DNA from: Candidatus Eiseniibacteriota bacterium
GTDB taxonomy: Bacteria > Orphanbacterota > Orphanbacteria > Orphanbacterales > Orphanbacteraceae
Direction: 5' to 3'
Length of the DNA stretch: 10,210 bases
Assembly: GCA_016867715.1 (NCBI GenBank)
Contig: VGIW01000107.1
Coordinates: 1 to 10,210 of the forward strand
Under the pieces are notes generated by a model. The model searched no databases. It was not told the DNA's origin and worked only from the letters and a program-made list of their open reading frames with translations. How positions within the stretch are numbered: position 1 is the stretch's first letter; every line of letters starts with the position of its first letter. Shown piece after piece: positions 1,827 through 9,092 of this stretch. The translations under genes and the position numbers were made by a program.

Positions 1827-2579
1827 CTACCGTCCTTTCCGCGCGCCGCTGATCGAGAGGACGACGCGCGCCGCGGGCTCGATCACACGAAACGTGAACG
1901 ATTCGGTGATGAAGAGACGAACGCGCTTCGTCTCCTGCCATTCGTAGCCGATCGCGAAGTCCTCGCCGAGCGTGAGCAATCGGTCGCCGCCGCGCATCGA
2001 GGCGAGGATCCCCCCCTCGAGATGCGGGGAGTAGAGGACAGGGCCGCCGAGGAGATCCTCGATCTGGCGGAGCGGCGGATGGCAAGGACCGTGCGAGGCG
2101 AGCGTCTCGTATGGTTTTCGCCCGAGGACGAGCGCGCATGCCCCGTCGATCGAGGCGTCCCGAAGGAGAAGGAGCGCACGCTAAACGCCGTCGACGATCC
2201 CCTTGACGTCGGAAGGAATCGGGATCGGCTTGTGGGCCGACGAGCCGAGAAGACCGGCGATCTTTCCGGCGGCGGGACCGTCGAAGAGCGCGCCGTCCTC
2301 GAAGGCGACCATCCGCCGCGCGGCTTCCTCCGCCGGCCCAAGGTCGATGTCCGCCGCGCCGCGGGTCGCGTTGTCCATTGCCCAGATGTCGAGATGGAAC
2401 GAGGTCCGCGCCTCGACGAGAGGGAGCGCCTGGCGGACGCCGAAGGCGACCCCCTCGCACGGCTGCTTCGCCGGAAGCTCGATTCGGCCAAGGCCGATCG
2501 CGGAGAAATCCCATCCCTTGGGGCCGTCCACGTCGGCGATCCGCCGCCCCGCGAGCCCGGCCTTGAGGACGCGGCGCAC
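1827..2579 (-). pseudogene. same gene read through the in-frame TAG at 2181-2183: about 250-codon hypothetical protein, possible pseudogene or sequencing error
   Basis: The frame stays open for 117 more protein-like codons after the TAG (RALLLLRDASIDGACALVLGRKPYETLASHGPCHPPL…FTFRVIEPAARVVLSISGARKGR) down to a second TAG at 1827-1829. No start codon is available for the downstream part. Confidence 0.45.
2181..2579 (-). CDS. hypothetical protein, intact N-terminal ORF of an interrupted gene (GTG start at 2579, TAG at 2181-2183)
   Basis: The 132-aa ORF has strongly GC-biased third positions and a protein-like composition (…SFHLDIWAMDNATRGAADIDLGPAEE…). I do not recognise a family. Confidence 0.55.
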   Translation of the reverse strand: MRRVLKAGLAGRRIADVDGPKGWDFSAIGLGRIELPAKQPCEGVAFGVRQALPLVEARTSFHLDIWAMDNATRGAADIDLGPAEEAARRMVAFEDGALFDGPAAGKIAGLLGSSAHKPIPIPSDVKGIVDGV

Positions 2580-2619
2580 GGCCTCGTCGATCGCACCCCA
2601 CGCGGCGTCCGGGGAATAA

Positions 2620-2658
2620 GGTATCCGATACCGGTTCTAATTTGGTATCGGATACCGG
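2620..2658. repeat. REP-like palindrome pair: GGTATCCGATACCGG, 9-bp spacer, GGTATCGGATACCGG
   Basis: Two 15-bp perfect palindromes differ only at the central base. They lie in the 178-bp spacer between two minus-strand genes. Confidence 0.8.
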
Positions 2659-2697
2659 CTTGCTTGAGGACCCAGATGTAGTAGGTGCCGCAGCGGT
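2643..2697. repeat. roughly 55-bp imperfect direct repeat of 2745-2796 (a palindrome plus a copy of the last 10 codons of the TolB-like gene)
   Basis: GGTATCGGATACCGGCTTgcttgaggaCCCAGATGTaGTAGGTGCCGCaGCGGT was aligned by eye to GGTATCGGATACCGGCTTattccaagatCCAGATGTcGTAGGTGCCGCcGCGGT. Confidence 0.7.
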
Positions 2698-2728
2698 CCG
2701 GTCAATGTATCGGGCAAGGTACGATCAA

Positions 2729-2756
2729 GGTATCGGATACCGGTATCGGATACCGG
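2729..2756. repeat. tandem overlapping palindromes GGTATCGGATACCGG-TATCGGATACCGG immediately 3' of the TolB-like stop codon
   Basis: Perfect palindromic units of the same family as 2620-2658. Degenerate half-copies (GTATCGGGCAAGGTACGATC) occur at 2706-2726. Confidence 0.8.
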
Positions 2757-2757
2757 C

Positions 2758-3951
2758 TTATTCCAAGATCCAGATGTCGTAGGTGCCGCCGCGGTTCGAG
2801 GCGAAGGCGATCCGGTCGCCGCGCGGGGACCAGGCCGGCTCCCGGTCGTCGGCGAGATGGCTCGCGAGGATCTTCTTCCGGCCGCTCGCCGGGTCGACCG
2901 CCCAGATGTCGTACTGCACGTTCCGGTTGTCGGCGAAGGCGAGGAAGGGGCCTTTCGGGCAGAAGGCGGGGTGGATCTCGCGCACCATCGGGTCGTTCGC
3001 GCCGGGGACGAGGGAGAGGATCGGGTCGGGCGGCTCGACCGTCGCGAGGTCCGATCCGCCCAGCTGGTTCGAGACGAACGCGAGGGCCGTGCCGTCCGCG
3101 CGCCACGTGGCGGACGACTCCGCGGTGGCGGCGGCGGTGTACGCCTCCTCCGGTCCGGACGGTGCTCCGCTCGCGATGGCGACGGAGTAGATATTCCAGT
3201 TTCCGTCCCGGTTCGAATGGAACGCGAGGCGCGCGCCGTTCGGCGACCAGACGGGACCCCGATCCGCGAAGGAATTCGTCGTGACCTGCGTCTCCTCCCC
3301 CCCCTCCGCCAAAACGGTCCAGATGTCCCAGTTCCCCGATCGGTTCGATGCGAACGCGATCCGGTCCCCCGCCGGCGACCAGTGCGGCGAGGCGTCGTCG
3401 TTCGAGGACGAAACGAGAACGGAAGGCGAGCCCCCGGCCGAGGGGACTGTGTGGAGATCGCGAAGGCCGCTTACACCTCTTGATGCATAAACGATCGTGC
3501 TCCCGTCGGGAGACCAGGCCGGCTCCCGCTCCTCCTCGCTCGGGCTTCCGATCGAGCGGAGGGTTCGTTCGGCGAGGAGCGCGCTCACCGTGGCGGATCC
3601 CTTCGCGCCGTCGGCGTCCTCCGCCTCGACCGTGATCTCGATCGCGCCGGCATCGAAGAGGAACGCGGGGAAGTAGAGGGAGAAGGGGGAGGTCGAAGCG
3701 GTCGCGAAGATCGTTCCCGCGGCTTTCAGGCGGATCGCCGCGATGCCGTCCTCGTCGGACGCGAGGCCGGTGACGGTGAAGCCGACGCCGGAGAGCGTAT
3801 CGCCCGATCGCGGGGATTGGATCACGACCGAAGGGGGAGTCCCGCCGTTTGTCGGCGACTCGTGCTTCCCGCAACCGGCGGGAAGAAGGGCGAGTGCGAT
3901 TGCAAGAGCGAGAAGCCGCTCGAAAAGACGCGGCCGGTGCGTGGTCGACAT
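2758..3951 (-). CDS. TolB-like periplasmic protein: signal peptide/probable lipoprotein, Ig-like domain, PD40-type beta-propeller repeats
   Basis: The ATG at 3949-3951 has a GGAGGA Shine-Dalgarno sequence 7 nt upstream. The N-terminus MSTTHRPRLFERLLALAIALALLPAGC carries a non-canonical lipobox. The repeat pattern …PAWSPDG…IAFASNR.G.WDIW… recurs at least five times, which is the PD40/WD40-like TolB signature. The gene ends at TAA 2758-2760. Confidence 0.8.
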   Translation of the reverse strand: MSTTHRPRLFERLLALAIALALLPAGCGKHESPTNGGTPPSVVIQSPRSGDTLSGVGFTVTGLASDEDGIAAIRLKAAGTIFATASTSPFSLYFPAFLFDAGAIEITVEAEDADGAKGSATVSALLAERTLRSIGSPSEEEREPAWSPDGSTIVYASRGVSGLRDLHTVPSAGGSPSVLVSSSNDDASPHWSPAGDRIAFASNRSGNWDIWTVLAEGGEETQVTTNSFADRGPVWSPNGARLAFHSNRDGNWNIYSVAIASGAPSGPEEAYTAAATAESSATWRADGTALAFVSNQLGGSDLATVEPPDPILSLVPGANDPMVREIHPAFCPKGPFLAFADNRNVQYDIWAVDPASGRKKILASHLADDREPAWSPRGDRIAFASNRGGTYDIWILE

Positions 3952-4059
3952 GCTCGTTCCTCCGCGGGTTCGCCGCCGGTCGGGACTCGCCTCGAGGCCC
4001 TCTGCGAGTTGACGGCGCGAGGCGCCCGATGCTACGTTCCGCCGGATGGCGCGCCGACA

Positions 4060-6066
4060 ATGGGGAGGGCACCCGTGAGCTCCCGATGGATTCTCCCTCT
4101 ACTCCTTCTTATCGGCCTCGCGATGCGCCTCTATTACCTCCACGGCATCGAGGCGAGCCCCGAGTTCCGAGTCCCTCTCGTCGACAACCGATGGTATCAC
4201 GATCGAGCGCTCGCCTGGTCGGAAGGAAGGGCGGGGTCCGAGCTCGACCTCTTTCGCGCGCCGTTCTATCCGTTCCTCCTGGGACAACTCTACCGGGTCT
4301 TCGGATCCGGCCCGTATGTTGCGCGGATCTTCCAAATGCTTCTCGGGCTCGCGGCGATCCTGCTTGTGCACCGGATCGGGAACCGCGCCTACGGGCCTCC
4401 GGTCGGGCTCGTCGCGGCCGCCTTTTCCCTCCTCTACAATCCCTTTATCTATTATGAAAACGAGACGCTCACGACCTCGCTCCTTCTCTTTCTCCTTCTT
4501 CTCGGCTTCTTCTTGCTTCTCGGGCTCCAGGAGGGAAAGAGATTTTGGGCGCTCGCCGCGGGGGCGGTCCTCGGGCTCGCGGCGGCGACCTATCCGACGG
4601 CTCTCGCCCTTTACCCGTTCGTTCTCCTCTGGAGCGTGTGGTGCGCGCGGAGCCGCGCGATGCGGACGCTCCCCGTGCTCGCGCCTCTCGCGATCGGCCT
4701 CGCGCTCCCTCCCCTCGCGGCGGCGGCGTGGAACACGAGAACGCACGGCGCCTTCGTCCTCGCGACGCAAGGGGGCGTGAACCTTTATATCGGAAACAAT
4801 CCGAACGCGGACGGAAGGACGGCGATCGTTCCCGACTGGCGCGACATCGCCTACGAAACGAAGGAGTACGAGGACAACGTCTCCCTCGCGGCGATCCGGG
4901 TCGCCGAGCGGGAGACCGGACGGAGGCTCTCGCCGGGCGAGGCGGACCGCTTCTGGCGGGAGCGTGCGCTCGAGTGGATCGCCTCGCGCCCCGCCGACGC
5001 GCTCCGCCTCTTCGGGCGAAAGATCGTCTATCTCGCGAGCGACGAGGAGATCCCGAACAACCGTTTTCTCACCCCCCACATCGAGGAGTACGCGCCGCTT
5101 CTTCGGCGCCTCTCGCTCGGGGCGGGGTTTTTCATCGCGTTCGGGATCGCGGGGCTCCTTCTCTCGGGGGGGCGCGCCGGAGCGCGCTCGCTCCTTGCGC
5201 TCTTTCTCCTCGCGCAAGCGGCGGTTCTCGTTCTCTTCTTCGTGTGCGCGCGCTTCCGCCTTCCAATGATGCCCTTCTTCCTCGTTCTGGCGGCGCACCT
5301 CGTCGTGCGGCTCGCGCGCGAAGGGCGGCGCTTTCCGATTCGCGTCGTTCTCTTCGTGGCGGTGCCGCTCCTTCTCGTCGCGCACTCGAATGCTTTTGAC
5401 GTGAACGTTCCGGGGGATCTCGCCTCGCTCTACTTCTCGCGGGGCCACGCGTTCGCCGAGGTCGGGCGGCTCGATCGGGCGGAGGAGATGTACCGCGAGG
5501 CGCTCGCGCTCGATCCGAGCGATCCGCGAGTGCTCATCAACCTCGGGGCGGTCCTCGCGCGGGCCGGGAGAGCCGATGAGGCGGAGCGCGTGCTCCTGAC
5601 GGCGCTCGATCGGGATCCCCGCTACGCGCCGTTCGTTTGGAACAACCTCGCGCTCGCACGTCTCGTCGCCGGCGATCCGGAGGGGGCTCTTCGCTTCTTC
5701 GAGCGATCGATCGAGGCGGCTCCGGGGGACGCGGATGTGCACGCGAACGCGGCGAACGCGCTCCTCGCGCTCGGAAGACACGAGGAAGCTCTCGCGCGCT
5801 ACGACGAGGCGCTCGGACGAGGGACGGCGCGGGCGCTTCCGACGCGCCTCGGGCGCGCGCTCGCCCTCTCGGCGCTCGGAAGGGGGAAGGAGGCGCTGGC
5901 CGAGACGGAATCGGTCGCGGCCGCGGCGCCCGGCGTTCCAGAAGCGTGGGCGGTCCTCGCCGAGGTCGCCGCCGCCACGGGCGAGCCGGAGAGGGCGGAG
6001 GAGGCGCGGGCGCGCTTCCAGGCGCTGACCGGCCGCCGCCCGGGGCCGGCCGACCTCCCGTTTTGA
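4060..6066 (+). CDS. membrane glycosyltransferase of the GT39/PMT (ArnT-like, GT-C fold) family fused to C-terminal TPR repeats
   Basis: The N-terminal two-thirds has many hydrophobic segments (…PFYPFLLGQLYRVFG…ILLVHRIGNRAYG…FLLLLGFFLLLG…), typical of PMT_2/ArnT-type GT-C enzymes. The C-terminal roughly 220 aa is Ala/Leu/Arg-rich with TPR periodicity (…ALALDPSDPRVLINLGAVLARAGRADEAE…). The ATG at 4060 is one candidate start. An alternative GTG at 4075 has a GGAGG Shine-Dalgarno sequence 6 nt upstream. The in-frame extension up to 3817 is rejected because it overlaps the divergent gene start. The stop codon is TGA 6064-6066. Confidence 0.7.
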   Translation: MGRAPVSSRWILPLLLLIGLAMRLYYLHGIEASPEFRVPLVDNRWYHDRALAWSEGRAGSELDLFRAPFYPFLLGQLYRVFGSGPYVARIFQMLLGLAAILLVHRIGNRAYGPPVGLVAAAFSLLYNPFIYYENETLTTSLLLFLLLLGFFLLLGLQEGKRFWALAAGAVLGLAAATYPTALALYPFVLLWSVWCARSRAMRTLPVLAPLAIGLALPPLAAAAWNTRTHGAFVLATQGGVNLYIGNNPNADGRTAIVPDWRDIAYETKEYEDNVSLAAIRVAERETGRRLSPGEADRFWRERALEWIASRPADALRLFGRKIVYLASDEEIPNNRFLTPHIEEYAPLLRRLSLGAGFFIAFGIAGLLLSGGRAGARSLLALFLLAQAAVLVLFFVCARFRLPMMPFFLVLAAHLVVRLAREGRRFPIRVVLFVAVPLLLVAHSNAFDVNVPGDLASLYFSRGHAFAEVGRLDRAEEMYREALALDPSDPRVLINLGAVLARAGRADEAERVLLTALDRDPRYAPFVWNNLALARLVAGDPEGALRFFERSIEAAPGDADVHANAANALLALGRHEEALARYDEALGRGTARALPTRLGRALALSALGRGKEALAETESVAAAAPGVPEAWAVLAEVAAATGEPERAEEARARFQALTGRRPGPADLPF

Positions 6067-6121
6067 ACGTTTGTACCTGGTACGAAGTTGGGTAGACGTT
6101 TTGAACGTCTGTACCAGGTAC
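6061..6121. repeat. two copies of TTTTGAACGT(T/C)TGTACC(T/A)GGTAC, each containing the palindrome GTACC-N-GGTAC
   Basis: The copies lie at 6061-6083 and 6098-6121, and their palindromic centres are complementary. They sit directly at and after the GT39-TPR stop codon. Confidence 0.75.
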
Positions 6122-6143
6122 AAGGGGGACCAGGACTGGAGTA

Positions 6144-6159
6144 TGTATCGGATACCGAC
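6144..6159. repeat. REP-like palindrome TGTATCGGATACCGAC, same family as 2620-2756
   Basis: The GTATC-G-GATAC core is identical to the copies 3.5 kb upstream. Confidence 0.65.
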
Positions 6160-6226
6160 GCGCGCCATGAGGACGAAAAGGCTGATGGAGCGTCCGTTTC
6201 GGGGAAGATAGGCGAAAGAGGTAAAA

Positions 6227-6299
6227 GAGGTATCAGGTACGTCTCAACCAGGAAGAAAGAGGTATCAGGTACGTCTCAGGAAAGGTATCAGGTACCGTG
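6227..6299 (+). promoter_or_regulatory. array of three direct repeats with 31-bp period (AGAGGTATCAGGTACGTCTCA twice, AAGGTATCAGGTACCGTGG once) abutting the tadA start
   Basis: The core GGTATCAGGTAC sits at 6229-6240, 6260-6271 and 6284-6295. The last copy ends one base before the GTG at 6297. The local region is GC-poorer than its surroundings. Confidence 0.6.
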
Positions 6300-6776
6300 G
6301 ATCACGTACGCTGGATGCGCCTCGCGCTTCTTGAAGCGGAGGAGGCGGCACGAGAGGGGGAGGTCCCGGTCGGCGCGGTCGTCATCCACGAAGGGCGTGT
6401 GATCGGGCGGGGCCACAACCGGGTCGAGGGGACGAACGACCCAACCGCGCACGCCGAGATCCTCGCGATCGGCGCTGCCGCCGAGGCGCTCGGCTCGTGG
6501 AGGCTCGAAGGCGCGACCCTCTACGTCACGCTCGAACCGTGCTTCATGTGCGCGGGGGCGATCGTCCTCGCGCGTCTCGACCGTCTCGTCTTCGGCGCGA
6601 CCGACCCGAAGGCGGGCGCGTGCGTCTCGCTCGCCGGCGTCGTCCAGGACCCGCGCCTCAACCATCGGGTCGATCTCCTCCACGGCATCCTCGAAACCGA
6701 GTCGCGCGCGCTCCTCGAGGATTTCTTCCGAAAGAAGCGAGAGGAGGCCGAGGGGACCCCGCGAGAAGACGGGTAG
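6297..6776 (+). CDS. tadA: tRNA-specific adenosine(34) deaminase
   Basis: The CDA-fold zinc motifs HAE(ILAI) and (E)PCFMCAGA are present. The N-terminus [24 protein letters not shown] matches the TadA consensus. The product is 159 aa. The start is GTG 6297 (an ATG at 6315 is an alternative) and the stop is TAG 6774-6776. Confidence 0.88.
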
Positions 6777-6907
6777 AAGCGGGGAGACGACCCCGGTTCT
6801 CCGGCCCTCCTCGAAGAACGCGCGCGTCCCGCACCTCCCCGAGCTCCGCATCTGGATCGCCCCGGCGGCTGCCGAAGTCCGCGTGCGTTCCCCGCCAAAC
6901 CGAGTCT

Positions 6908-7013
6908 TGTATCGTGTCCCGGAATTCCCCCAACAGGGGATTTGTCCAATTCAGTATCGTGTCCCCGAATTTCTCGAATGACTTGATTCAGTATCGTGTC
7001 CCCGAATGTCTCC
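6908..7013 (+). repeat. three direct repeats (T/C)(T/A)GTATCGTGTCCC(C/G)GAAT at 6908-6927, 6953-6970 and 6989-7006, with GGAATTCC and CCCC-CAACA-GGGG palindromes between the first and second copies
   Basis: The repeats were read directly from the sequence. They lie in a 572-bp intergenic region whose GC content is clearly lower than the window average. Confidence 0.75.
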
Positions 7014-7293
7014 CGATCGGTTGCGCCGGCGTTCCCGAGTCCCTGAACTCGGTGGATGCCCAGGTTGCACGGATTCCGTCGACGGTCGCCGGATTTCCTT
7101 CGCCGAGTTCCGCCGCGATCGGCTGCGCGATCCCCCGGTCGCATTGCATAAGAAGAGCTGATAGATCCGATTCAATCCGTGCGAAGAAAAAGTAGCCGCC
7201 CGTTCCCCGTTCTCACTACCTTGCCCTCATCGCTCGCCCGGTCGGTCCGAGCAAGGGAGGATCCGACCGGCACGCGAAACCGCGCTCGCCTCT

Positions 7294-7302
7294 CCCCCCC
7301 CC
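7294..7302. repeat. homopolymeric C9 tract 47 bp upstream of the secreted-protein start codon
   Basis: The sequence is ctCTCCCCCCCCCacggg. Confidence 0.8.
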
Positions 7303-7348
7303 ACGGGCGGCCGGAAACGAAACACCCTTCGAAAGGAGTATCCAGAGC

Positions 7349-8137
7349 GTGAAGAAGGTACGGATGTTTGTTGCGAGCTTCGCGGCGGTCCTCATGCTGG
7401 CCGGAACCGGCTCGGCCGTGATGACGAACACTTCGGGCGATCAGCCCCTCATCCACAGCGGGCACGTTCTCACGAGCCCGGCGGTCACATCGGTCGGTCG
7501 CATTCTCTACGCGCCTTCTGAAGACGATGATCCGGCGTATCGCGCGGCGATCTCGGCGGCGGCCGGCGGAGCGGTCGTCGATTACTTCGACGCTCGCGTC
7601 GCGACCCCTGACCTCCCGTTGCTCCGCGAGTACGACTGCGTGCACACGTGGGCCAACTACCCGTACGCGGACAACGTTCTCTTCGGCGACAACCTCGCCG
7701 AGTACGTCGATATCGGCGGGCACGTGGTTCTCGGCGTCTTCTGCACGTTCACCTTGGGGAACTACCTGAGCGGGGCGATCATGACGCCCGCGTACAGCCC
7801 GGTCGTCTCTCCCTCGGGGAGCAACCATTATTCCTACAGCGCGTACGACGGTCACGGAACGACCTGCATCCACTCGGGCGTGTCGGCCTACGGATCGTCC
7901 TATCGTGACATGCTCGCGCTCCAGGGCGGCGGCCTCGTCGCCGGCAACTTCCAGGACGGCGAGATCGCCCACGCGTATCGCCCCGACTTCGCTGTGGTCT
8001 ACAGCAACGGCTCCGGCGGTTATCCGATCTACGGCGACGGCGACTGGCCGCTCCTCCTCGCGAACTCGTGCGCCTGCGACGGGTCGACCGCGGTCGAGGA
8101 GACGACCTGGGGCCGCGTGAAGACGTTCTTCCGGTAG
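7349..8137 (+). CDS. secreted Tyr/Gly/Ser-rich hypothetical protein, 262 aa with a Sec signal peptide
   Basis: The GTG at 7349 has an AAAGGAG Shine-Dalgarno sequence at 7332-7338. The signal peptide is MKKVRMFVASFAAVLMLAGTGSA. The mature protein is rich in Y, G and S, has 6 Cys and ends …CACDGSTAVEETTWGRVKTFFR. I recognise no domain. The stop codon is TAG 8135-8137. Confidence 0.7.
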   Translation: MKKVRMFVASFAAVLMLAGTGSAVMTNTSGDQPLIHSGHVLTSPAVTSVGRILYAPSEDDDPAYRAAISAAAGGAVVDYFDARVATPDLPLLREYDCVHTWANYPYADNVLFGDNLAEYVDIGGHVVLGVFCTFTLGNYLSGAIMTPAYSPVVSPSGSNHYSYSAYDGHGTTCIHSGVSAYGSSYRDMLALQGGGLVAGNFQDGEIAHAYRPDFAVVYSNGSGGYPIYGDGDWPLLLANSCACDGSTAVEETTWGRVKTFFR

Positions 8138-8265: not shown

Positions 8266-8294
8266 TTGCAGCAGGTCGCTCAACCCGGTAACCT
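8266..8294 (+). promoter_or_regulatory. candidate promoter for the second tRNA/ffs cluster (TTGCAG, 17-bp spacer, TAACCT)
   Basis: Only a hexamer match. It is followed by a GGCGGGC…GCCCGCC hairpin before tRNA-Ser at 8379. Confidence 0.3.
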
Positions 8295-8378
8295 ACCGGG
8301 GAGGATGCTCGAGACTCGAGGCGGGCCTTCGGTCCTTTGCAAGCCGCCCGCCCGAAAGCCGCGAGGTCCATCCTCGCC

Positions 8379-8465
8379 GGAGAGATGCCGGAGTGGTTGA
8401 ACGGGACGGTCTCGAAAACCGTTGAGGGGGCAACCCCTCCGAGGGTTCGAATCCCTCTCTCTCCG
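8379..8465 (+). tRNA. tRNA-Ser (anticodon CGA), type II, with CCA encoded
   Basis: The acceptor stem is GGAGAGA/TCTCTCC. The anticodon stem is ACGGT/ACCGT and the loop CTCGAAA gives anticodon CGA. There is a long variable arm (GAGGGGGCAACCCCTCC), T arm GAGGG-TTCGAAT-CCCTC and discriminator G, then CCA. Confidence 0.9.
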
Positions 8466-8543
8466 CCAGCGACGCGCGCGCGAGAAGCCGCCGGAGAGGA
8501 CTCGGAACCGGGTGACGTCTTCCTCCGGAGCTGATAGAATGCC

Positions 8544-8630
8544 GGAGAGTTGCGAGAGCGGTTGAATCGGCGTGATTGGAAATCACGTGTACGGGCAACC
8601 GTACCGAGGGTTCGAATCCCTCACTCTCCG
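8544..8630 (+). tRNA. tRNA-Ser (anticodon GGA), type II, with CCA encoded
   Basis: The acceptor stem is GGAGAGT/ACTCTCC. The anticodon stem is CGTGA/TCACG and the loop TTGGAAA gives anticodon GGA. There is a long variable arm (TGTACGGGCAACCGTACC), T loop TTCGAAT and discriminator G, then CCA. Confidence 0.9.
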
Positions 8631-8680
8631 CCATCAATGGGCGCGGCCGCTCGGGCCGCCGTTTGGTCGAGAGTCGGGTC

Positions 8681-8753
8681 GGGGATGTAGCTCAGTTGGG
8701 AGAGCGCTGCCTTCGCAAGGCAGAGGTCGGCGGTTCGATCCCGCTCATCTCCA
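8681..8753 (+). tRNA. tRNA-Ala (anticodon CGC), with CCA encoded
   Basis: The acceptor stem GGGGATG/CATCTCC carries the G3:U70 alanine identity pair. The D arm is GCTC-AGTTGGGA-GAGC. The anticodon loop TTCGCAA gives anticodon CGC. The T loop is TTCGATC and the discriminator is A, then CCA. Confidence 0.9.
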
Positions 8754-8775
8754 CCATTTCATTGATTGATCAAGG

Positions 8776-9092
8776 GTCGCCGCCTGAACAGTGTGGGTCG
8801 TGCTAGACGGGGAGTTAGCGGTGCCCTGAACCCGCAATCCGCTCCAGCGGGGTTGAATCCCTTTCCGAGGCCCGGCCTCGGCGGAGGCAGGGAACGAGAG
8901 ACGGCGTGGAAGGCCAGGTCCCGCGCGATGGGGGACCGTGAACCCCGTCAGGACCGGAAGGTAGCAGCGGTAAGCGGATCTTTCCATGCGCCGCGGGCTC
9001 GCTTGGTCTGAGCCGCGCTCTCGCCGACCGCTTCGTCCGGGAGGGTCGACGAAAGGTGCACGGCCTACTCCTCTCGTCCGGGTGAAACGCGG
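8776..9092 (+). ncRNA. ffs: signal recognition particle RNA, long form with extended helix 5; boundaries approximate
   Basis: The domain IV motif GTCAGGACCGGAAGGTAGCAGC at 8947-8968 matches the consensus GUCAGGNCCGGAAGGNAGCAGC, with the GGAA tetraloop at 8956-8959. Hand pairing shows that 8917-8935 pairs with 8980-9000 (CCCGCGCGAUGGGGGA with UCUUUCCAUGCGCCGCGGG). Further out, 5' GGCCAGG pairs with 3' CUUGGUC, and CGAGAGACGGCG at 8895-8906 pairs with CGCCGCGCUCUCG at 9012-9024. The helix is therefore longer than in a 4.5S-type RNA. The location immediately upstream of dnaX is the classical ffs position. Confidence 0.75.

Follow-up and report, generated by a model that had tools for sequence, protein, structure and literature searches.

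A dense family of 13-nt intergenic palindromes in an Eisenbacteria-like contig from Lake Tanganyika, probably REP-like elements of the TIRYT type

Two intergenic regions carry a family of short palindromes

Contig VGIW01000107.1 of a Candidatus Eiseniibacteriota bacterium (GenBank assembly GCA_016867715.1; the 10,210 nt analysed are referred to as the window herein) contains a dense family of short palindromes of the form GTAYCNGRTAC. The genes around these repeats are a remnant of an encapsulin gene (Linocin_M18; 1830..2620, minus strand; profile positions 13-253 of 253), a gene for a PD40 beta-propeller protein (2758-3951, minus strand), a PMT_2/TPR glycosyltransferase gene (4075-6066, plus strand) and tadA (6297-6776, plus strand). 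All 10 copies of the palindrome are intergenic and confined to region A (2597-2757), downstream of the PD40 stop codon, and region B (6067-6296), which runs from the stop codon of the glycosyltransferase gene to the start of tadA, giving a density of approximately 1 copy per kb in the window.

Exact matches to GTAYCNGRTAC begin at 2621, 2645, 2730, 2743, 6073, 6111, 6145, 6230, 6262 and 6285 (n = 10), versus 0.01 expected from 200 dinucleotide-preserving shuffles. An earlier note, made from the sequence alone, had stated that such an 11-bp palindrome should be absent by chance, and the shuffles bear this out; the family that it located is the same one, with four coordinates off by one. The full repeat unit is the 13-mer GGTAYC-N-GRTACC, a 6-1-6 dyad (search form GGTAYCNGRTACC). 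When two mismatches were allowed, the 13-mer was still found at only the same 10 sites (0.63 expected) and never in coding or RNA sequence. The copy at 2740-2756 extends to a perfect 17-nt palindrome, CCGGTATCGGATACCGG, and the remaining copies are 13-nt palindromes or T/G hybrids (GGTATCAGGTACS); the units are flanked by AAGG, TTGG, CCGG or TTTG. The earlier note had counted at least 13 copies in three intergenic regions. While the restriction to intergenic sequence holds, the palindrome occupies two spacers, and the three "diverged" copies that made up the higher count belong to a separate direct repeat in the third.

Region A contains an inverted, REPIN-like doublet of GGTATCCGATACC, an 11-nt spacer and GGTATCGGATACC (2620..2656; exact matches, unstranded), which as single-stranded DNA folds into a 14-bp stem (dG -13.7 kcal/mol, z = -6.0). 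It also contains a head-to-tail pair of two GGTATCGGATACC units (2729..2754, unstranded; motif matches and repeat family D4) that begins 4 nt past the PD40 stop codon (2758-2760, minus strand). In region B, a second inverted doublet, TTGTACCTGGTAC ... GTACCAGGTACAA (6070..6124, plus strand; exact matches), begins 4 nt past the TGA stop of the PMT_2/TPR gene. Its units (6072-6122) stand 25 nt apart, the sequence between them containing another small hairpin, AGACGTT-TTG-AACGTCT, and the whole folds as DNA at -17.7 kcal/mol (z = -6.0); the RNA fold of 6060-6300 gave z = -4.7. The two inverted doublets have complementary central bases and form 13-14 bp stems as single strands, both with z of about -6. 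A single copy, TGTATCGGATACC (6144..6156, unstranded; exact match), follows and has no stable fold alone. The last three copies are direct repeats of the hybrid GGTATCAGGTACS at 6229, 6261 and 6284 (6224..6296, plus strand; exact matches), the first two embedded in a 23-nt repeat, AAAGAGGTATCAGGTACGTCTCA, and the third abutting the GTG start of tadA (6297).

The T..G hybrid retains its pairing as a wobble on the plus (sense) strand. Across 21 copies from the window and two other contigs of the same lake, the orientation of some of them chosen by the analyst, pairing was kept in 87% of cells versus 22-46% when the partners were slid. In this comparison the column pair 7-11 was T-A, C-G or T-G and was never unpaired.

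The palindrome recurs across phyla and flanks RAYT-like genes

Repetitive extragenic palindromic (REP) sequences and the domesticated transposases associated with them are well studied in Proteobacteria only. Using a paired-motif scan (two units within 30 nt, one genome per species), we found paired palindromes in at least 120 loci from more than 10 phyla, against a rough random-sequence expectation of a few; these phyla include Actinomycetota, Bacteroidota, Planctomycetota, Bacillota, Bdellovibrionota, Omnitrophota, Gemmatimonadota, Chloroflexota, Acidobacteriota and Verrucomicrobiota, among others. Inverted doublets outnumbered direct ones among the matches listed (70 vs 30). The enrichment between genes that the earlier note proposed to check was also seen in other genomes: in low-GC loci, where ATG-to-stop open reading frames (ORFs) approximate genes reasonably well, the share lying inside ORFs was 17% for motif clusters versus 79% for random segments. 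This test was split by GC content, and a stop-to-stop version was dropped because in high-GC loci spurious ORFs run across the motif.

An all-versus-all comparison of the ORFs near the motif in these loci returned Y1_Tnp as the sole specific recurrent family, along with generic ABC ATPases at variable distance. A profile built from the recurrent family identified nine members in 0.87 Mb of loci, each of which scored above the Pfam cut-off for Y1_Tnp (PF01797). Their best NCBIfam model is that of the REP-associated tyrosine transposase (RAYT; REP_Tyr_transpos), at 57-82 bits versus a cut-off of 80, and the homologues score best on this model rather than on the IS200 model. In 9/9 of these RAYT-like ORFs the palindrome, or in L119 a GGTGCC variant of it, lies within about 200 nt of the gene ends, and in seven it is present on both sides; typically a doublet precedes the start codon by 40-200 nt, and 1-3 copies follow the stop at a distance of 5-25 nt. 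A linked RAYT-type gene, which the earlier note had suggested looking for, therefore occurs at nine loci of other genomes. The carriers are Pseudobdellovibrio (L019), two Acidimicrobiales (L051, L127), two Acidobacteriota (L072, L076), a deltaproteobacterium (L107), a member of the Planctomycetia (L115), an actinomycetote with the variant GGTGCC-W-GGCACC (L119) and a member of the Bacteroidia (L031), in which a degraded gene is flanked by the GTATC version that dominates in the window. Doublets were also present on other contigs of four of the RAYT-bearing genomes (L071, L023, L065, L016).

The RAYT-like proteins carry the signatures NH[VY]H, FQ/WQ and Y[IV]HxNP, and some have a C-terminal helix-turn-helix (HTH)-like tail. 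On our reading of Table 1 in Quentin et al. 2018 (PMC6006769), as opposed to a formal classification, the HUH and tyrosine signatures fit subclass 2.1 of TnpA_Y1. This subclass corresponds to the Group 1 RAYTs (Bertels et al. 2017, PMC5581495) and to TIRYT (PMC3733652), and is the most widespread class of RAYTs, reported to be without REPs (PMC6006769).

The units are absent from orthologous regions of relatives

Metagenomes of Lake Tanganyika (JGI 3300020074, 3300020083, 3300020084, 3300020109 and 3300020220) are the source of the population represented by the window, whose glycosyltransferase has its nearest named homologues in Candidatus Eisenbacteria. Since the window differs from JGI contig Ga0194113_10011549 (L006) at only 9 positions (99.91% identity), it represents a separate assembly of that population. 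The gene order PD40 - glycosyltransferase - (extra gene) - tadA is conserved in five related loci. In 64 kb of these relatives with conserved gene order there were 0 copies of the exact motif. Intergenic distances are considerably smaller in them as well: from the PMT_2/TPR gene to tadA, L140 has 35 nt and the window 230 nt. Two of the relatives are closer (L139 and L143; neighbour protein 69% identical), and in L143 a tRNA-Arg gene comes straight after PD40. Only in L144, an Eisenbacteria relative at a greater distance, do degenerate units of the GGTATC type precede tadA, 3-4 in number.

GTATC, GTACC and hybrid units recur in the same mix on further contigs of the lake, L134 and L137/L138, which have otherwise no similarity to the window; that they stem from the window's organism is unproven. 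Their motif clusters sit between co-directional genes, and L134 has 8 copies in 300 nt. In L134 the motif also occurs within a larger repeat of about 56 nt, GGTATCAGGTACCGGAACAACACCGGAACAACATTTGGCGGTACA, present 2-3 times at 3934-4204 and reaching the contig end. A metagenome scan with the GTATC-type doublet returned 6 loci, none with a RAYT, and missed the window's own contig, so this collection is incomplete for such a search. The longest source contig has 10.4 kb, and Logan contigs end at or near the motif; as breaks at inverted repeats can be an assembler effect, they were not counted as evidence of dispersal.

The units are probably non-autonomous REP-like elements

We consider it probable that the GGTAYC-N-GRTACC units are non-autonomous extragenic palindromes of the REP/REPIN-like, TIRYT type that have expanded in this lineage. 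The units are intergenic, strongly enriched and placed just behind stop codons, where inverted doublets fold into 13-14 bp hairpins; pairing is kept among the copies, and in other genomes inverted doublets predominate. The same palindrome flanks RAYT-like genes in the nine other loci and also occurs elsewhere in several of those genomes. Finally, units are absent from the orthologous regions of relatives, and the same mix of variants is present on other contigs of the lake. These observations support the REP/BIME-type interpretation (BIME, bacterial interspersed mosaic element) offered by the earlier note. We do not file the units as canonical REPs because the GT[AG]G foot is missing.

A mechanism of the following kind can be envisaged. 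A transposase of the TIRYT class, encoded elsewhere in the genome, would bind the palindrome. It may recognise a hairpin formed by single-stranded DNA at the replication fork, as E. coli TnpA-REP does, or else a symmetric site in duplex DNA. By nicking and rejoining DNA at the palindrome it would cause units to be copied or maintained. Hairpins so placed would become part of transcripts at the 3' ends of genes and may stabilise or punctuate the mRNAs there, and the copies could act as recombination points.

Recombination at the copies would explain two pieces of debris in region A. The encapsulin remnant has no start codon, and approximately 12 N-terminal profile positions are missing exactly at the motif copy 2620-2632; with an in-frame TAG at 2181-2183, this gene bordered by the repeat cluster is probably a pseudogene. 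There is no encapsulin gene at the matching position in the relative L143. Beside the motif copy at 2644-2656 lies the 3'-end remnant of a PD40-type gene (2657..2700, minus strand; repeat family D6): 2644-2700 is an 84% copy of 2742-2798, which comprises the motif and the last PD40 codons, such that a module of gene end plus repeat is present twice. The repeats would account for contig breaks at their sites, for the expanded spacers and for local gene debris such as the truncated encapsulin and the duplicated gene end.

Several observations weigh against this interpretation. The canonical foot is missing, with no GTAG or GTGG at any unit. Single units, at 13-17 nt, show no stable folding individually, and the 6-1-6 symmetry would equally suit a dimeric duplex-binding protein. 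The copy count covers one 10-kb contig. No insertion/absence polymorphism of units was seen among the population contigs, nor were there single-nucleotide polymorphisms inside the repeat regions of these contigs. The window and the Lake Tanganyika contigs and relatives L133-L144 contain no RAYT-like ORF. This agrees with the earlier note, which saw neither a RAYT nor a regulator gene in the window, and for this reason the cognate enzyme of the window's organism is assumed; the best 120 hits of the profile search also included no RAYT named Eisenbacteria. The RAYT-like proteins with GGTACC flanks are 24-66% identical to one another and form no visible subclade. In a reverse check, moreover, three RAYT homologues picked by protein similarity alone, from Omnitrophica, Gaiellaceae and Alkalihalobacterium, had GGGGTCTGACCCC-type flanks rather than GGTAYC.

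These flanks, 13-nt units of GGGGTCTGACCCC, GGGGACAGACCCC or GGGGCCAGACCCC (L145, ~2950-3000; L146, ~2850-2960 and 3580-3600; L149, ~2800-2860 and 3575-3595), have the same 6-1-6 design and fit the terminal inverted repeat consensus of TIRYTs, GGGGWSAS (PMC3733652). GGTAYC-N-GRTACC is therefore one version of GGNNNC-N-GNNNCC and not the site of the whole class. It is possible, though we advance this only tentatively, that the 6-1-6 form GGNNNC-N-GNNNCC (GGTACC, GGTATC, GGTGCC or GGGGTC) is a conserved cognate site of the Group 1/subclass 2.1/TIRYT class across more than 10 phyla. Were this so, the Group 1 RAYTs, the largest and least understood class, would have REP/REPIN-like partners, contrary to the 2018 survey, and the Eisenbacteria-like population, with about 1 copy per kb, would represent an expansion of unusual density. 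The dyad symmetry would then suggest duplex or cruciform recognition by a dimer rather than the asymmetric hairpin-plus-GTAG recognition of E. coli TnpA-REP. A palindrome that flanks such genes in at least six phyla, together with its Eisenbacteria-like expansion, offers a concrete, testable substrate for this enzyme class and a marker with which intergenic repeats of candidate phyla can be annotated.

Comparison with known repeat systems

The earlier note considered the family undescribed. TIRtron/TIRYT repeat families flanking this transposase class have been known since 2013 (Di Nocera et al., PMC3733652), so that the claim stands for the present core only: GGTAYC-N-GRTACC has no mention in the searchable literature, a search that covers text and not figures, and exact-string matches were unrelated primers. 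As in those families, a Y1 transposase with the subclass 2.1 signature is flanked by the palindrome, here at nine loci of other genomes and not in the window's organism. The flanking repeats are likewise partly or wholly self-complementary, and dimers or clusters are also present at a distance from the transposase gene (as regions A and B, the eight copies of L134 and the second loci of RAYT-bearing genomes). Unlike the published motif, GGGGWSAS, the core here is GGTAYC-N-GRTACC; the main palindrome does not contain GGGGWSAS, and GGGGWCNGWCCCC occurs in the window at chance level. The density of 1 copy per kb is far above that of the "moderately abundant" published families, and neither the window nor L133-L144 yielded a TIRYT gene.

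With canonical REP/BIME sequences and the REPIN-RAYT systems of E. coli and Pseudomonas, the units have in common that they are short extragenic palindromes, form long hairpins as inverted doublets, are placed after stop codons between co-directional genes, show lineage-specific expansion and, in other genomes, flank a single-copy Y1 HUH transposase gene. Canonical REPs, however, are imperfect stems of 20-40 nt with a bulge and a 5' GT[AG]G foot, whereas the units here are near-perfect 13-nt 6-1-6 palindromes lacking the foot, and the associated transposase class had no REPs in the 2018 survey (PMC6006769). The ends of IS200/IS605 elements and their miniature derivatives are likewise recognised as small DNA hairpins by the Y1 HUH enzyme family, but no tnpA or tnpB lies inside the elements here, and IS200/IS605 has distinct left and right subterminal hairpins where these units are symmetric palindromes.

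Alternative explanations

Arrays of palindromic operators, such as the 7-1-7 boxes of the Fur family, also consist of odd-spaced perfect inverted repeats that sometimes overlap or stand in tandem. The earlier note had offered an operator array for a dimeric HTH regulator as its second explanation, in which such a regulator (or a Fur-like one) would control tadA and its neighbours as a regulon. The perfect 6-1-6 symmetry of the units fits this, as do the three copies immediately ahead of tadA, the third of which reaches the start codon, and the degenerate units at the same place in L144. Duplex binding by the transposase itself is also conceivable, given the C-terminal HTH of some subclass 2.1 RAYT-like proteins (PMC6006769). 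On the other hand, in L139, L143 and L140/L141 such sites are missing ahead of tadA and throughout the syntenic region, four copies lie downstream of the PD40 stop codon and two directly behind that of the PMT_2/TPR gene, and no regulator gene recurs near the motif among the at least 120 loci listed. The sites are thus placed after stop codons and are not conserved in orthologous promoters, and a promoter scan of the window found no sigma-70-like promoter overlapping the palindromes. We therefore regard an operator array as unlikely. None of the LexA, Fur, NrdR, CsoR or IdeR boxes known to us fits the palindrome sequence.

The units might instead be selected RNA-level hairpins at gene 3' ends (terminators, mRNA stabilisers or processing sites) that arose independently of a transposase. 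Consistent with this, doublets begin 4 nt past the stop codons of co-directional genes and fold strongly, and the hybrids preserve a G-U wobble on the sense strand. The hairpins, however, are not followed by a T-tract, and the promoter/terminator scan called no terminator at the motif clusters; an intrinsic terminator was rejected on these grounds. An Rfam gathering search of the window returned only the tRNAs and the signal recognition particle (SRP) RNA, and 6000-7400 had no match even at E <= 1. Such hairpins are also absent from the orthologous 3' ends of relatives, and this explanation leaves the flanking of RAYT genes unaccounted for. An independent RNA-level origin accordingly seems improbable to us, and an RNA-level role is more likely to be a consequence of the repeats than their origin.

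Purely local repeats produced by slippage or duplication within the spacers, with neither dispersal nor a dedicated enzyme, are the least probable of the alternatives: the head-to-tail duplication at 2729-2754, the duplicate of 2742-2798 at 2644-2700, the embedding of hybrids in 23-nt direct repeats and the slippage evident in heptamer runs, (GGTACCN)n, in 25 of the at least 120 loci listed all speak for local events, but copies occur in two spacers of the window 3.3 kb apart, the same variants occur on unrelated contigs of the same lake, and the same 13-mer is found across phyla and beside RAYT-like genes.

Two further candidates were rejected on anatomy: CRISPR, where the spacing is unfit and there is no array, and integron attC sites.

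A separate direct repeat, remaining genes and other repeats

The copies that the earlier note described as diverged palindromes (at 6909, 6954 and 6991) are genuine repeats but non-palindromic. They lie in three 27-nt direct repeats, ATTCAGTATCGTGTCCCCGAATKTCTC, spaced 45 and 37 nt (6904..7012, plus strand; repeat family D8), which have only GTATCG in common with the palindrome (4 mismatches of 13) and give no fold signal (z = +0.6). The reverse complement of this repeat holds GGGGACAC and a GATAC half-site, and GGGGACAC fits the TIRYT consensus GGGGWSAS (PMC3733652). We treat the 27-nt repeat as a separate family that may be akin to the palindrome. The repeats sit in an unusually long spacer of 587 nt ahead of a gene for a hypothetical protein of 257 aa (7364-8137, plus strand). 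A look-alike that is 1 nt longer, GGTATCGCGTCCTCCGAAT, lies beside the motif cluster in L137 (7669-7687).

The remaining genes of the window are all on the plus strand: a DUF4143 ATPase gene (107-1063), two tRNA-Ser genes and a tRNA-Arg gene (1178-1724), three tRNA genes (8379-8756), the SRP RNA gene (8798-9063) and dnaX (9117 onward). Sigma-70-like promoters precede the tRNA genes (1136-1163, ~1600-1630, ~8270-8300 and 8512-8540; TTGACC-N16-TAGAAT, TTGCCA/TTGCAG..TAACCT), indicating that the organism uses ordinary promoters.

Other repeats were noted in the scanned loci. The heptamer runs comprise 3-7 units in Gemmatimonadota, Dehalococcoidia, Acidimicrobiia and Luteitalea (L048, L049, L052, L055, L059, L062, L079, L080 and others), and may have arisen from the palindrome by slippage or represent a microsatellite unrelated to it. 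The GGTACCWGGTACC units of L040, L111 and L118 (Bacillus dakarensis) are accompanied by a second palindrome, GTGGACAGTGTCCAC, between or next to them, which suggests that Bacillaceae carry composite repeat elements. In Streptomyces sp. R302 (L090, 5584-5701) there are six exact 21-nt tandem repeats of GGTACCCGGTACCCGACCACG.

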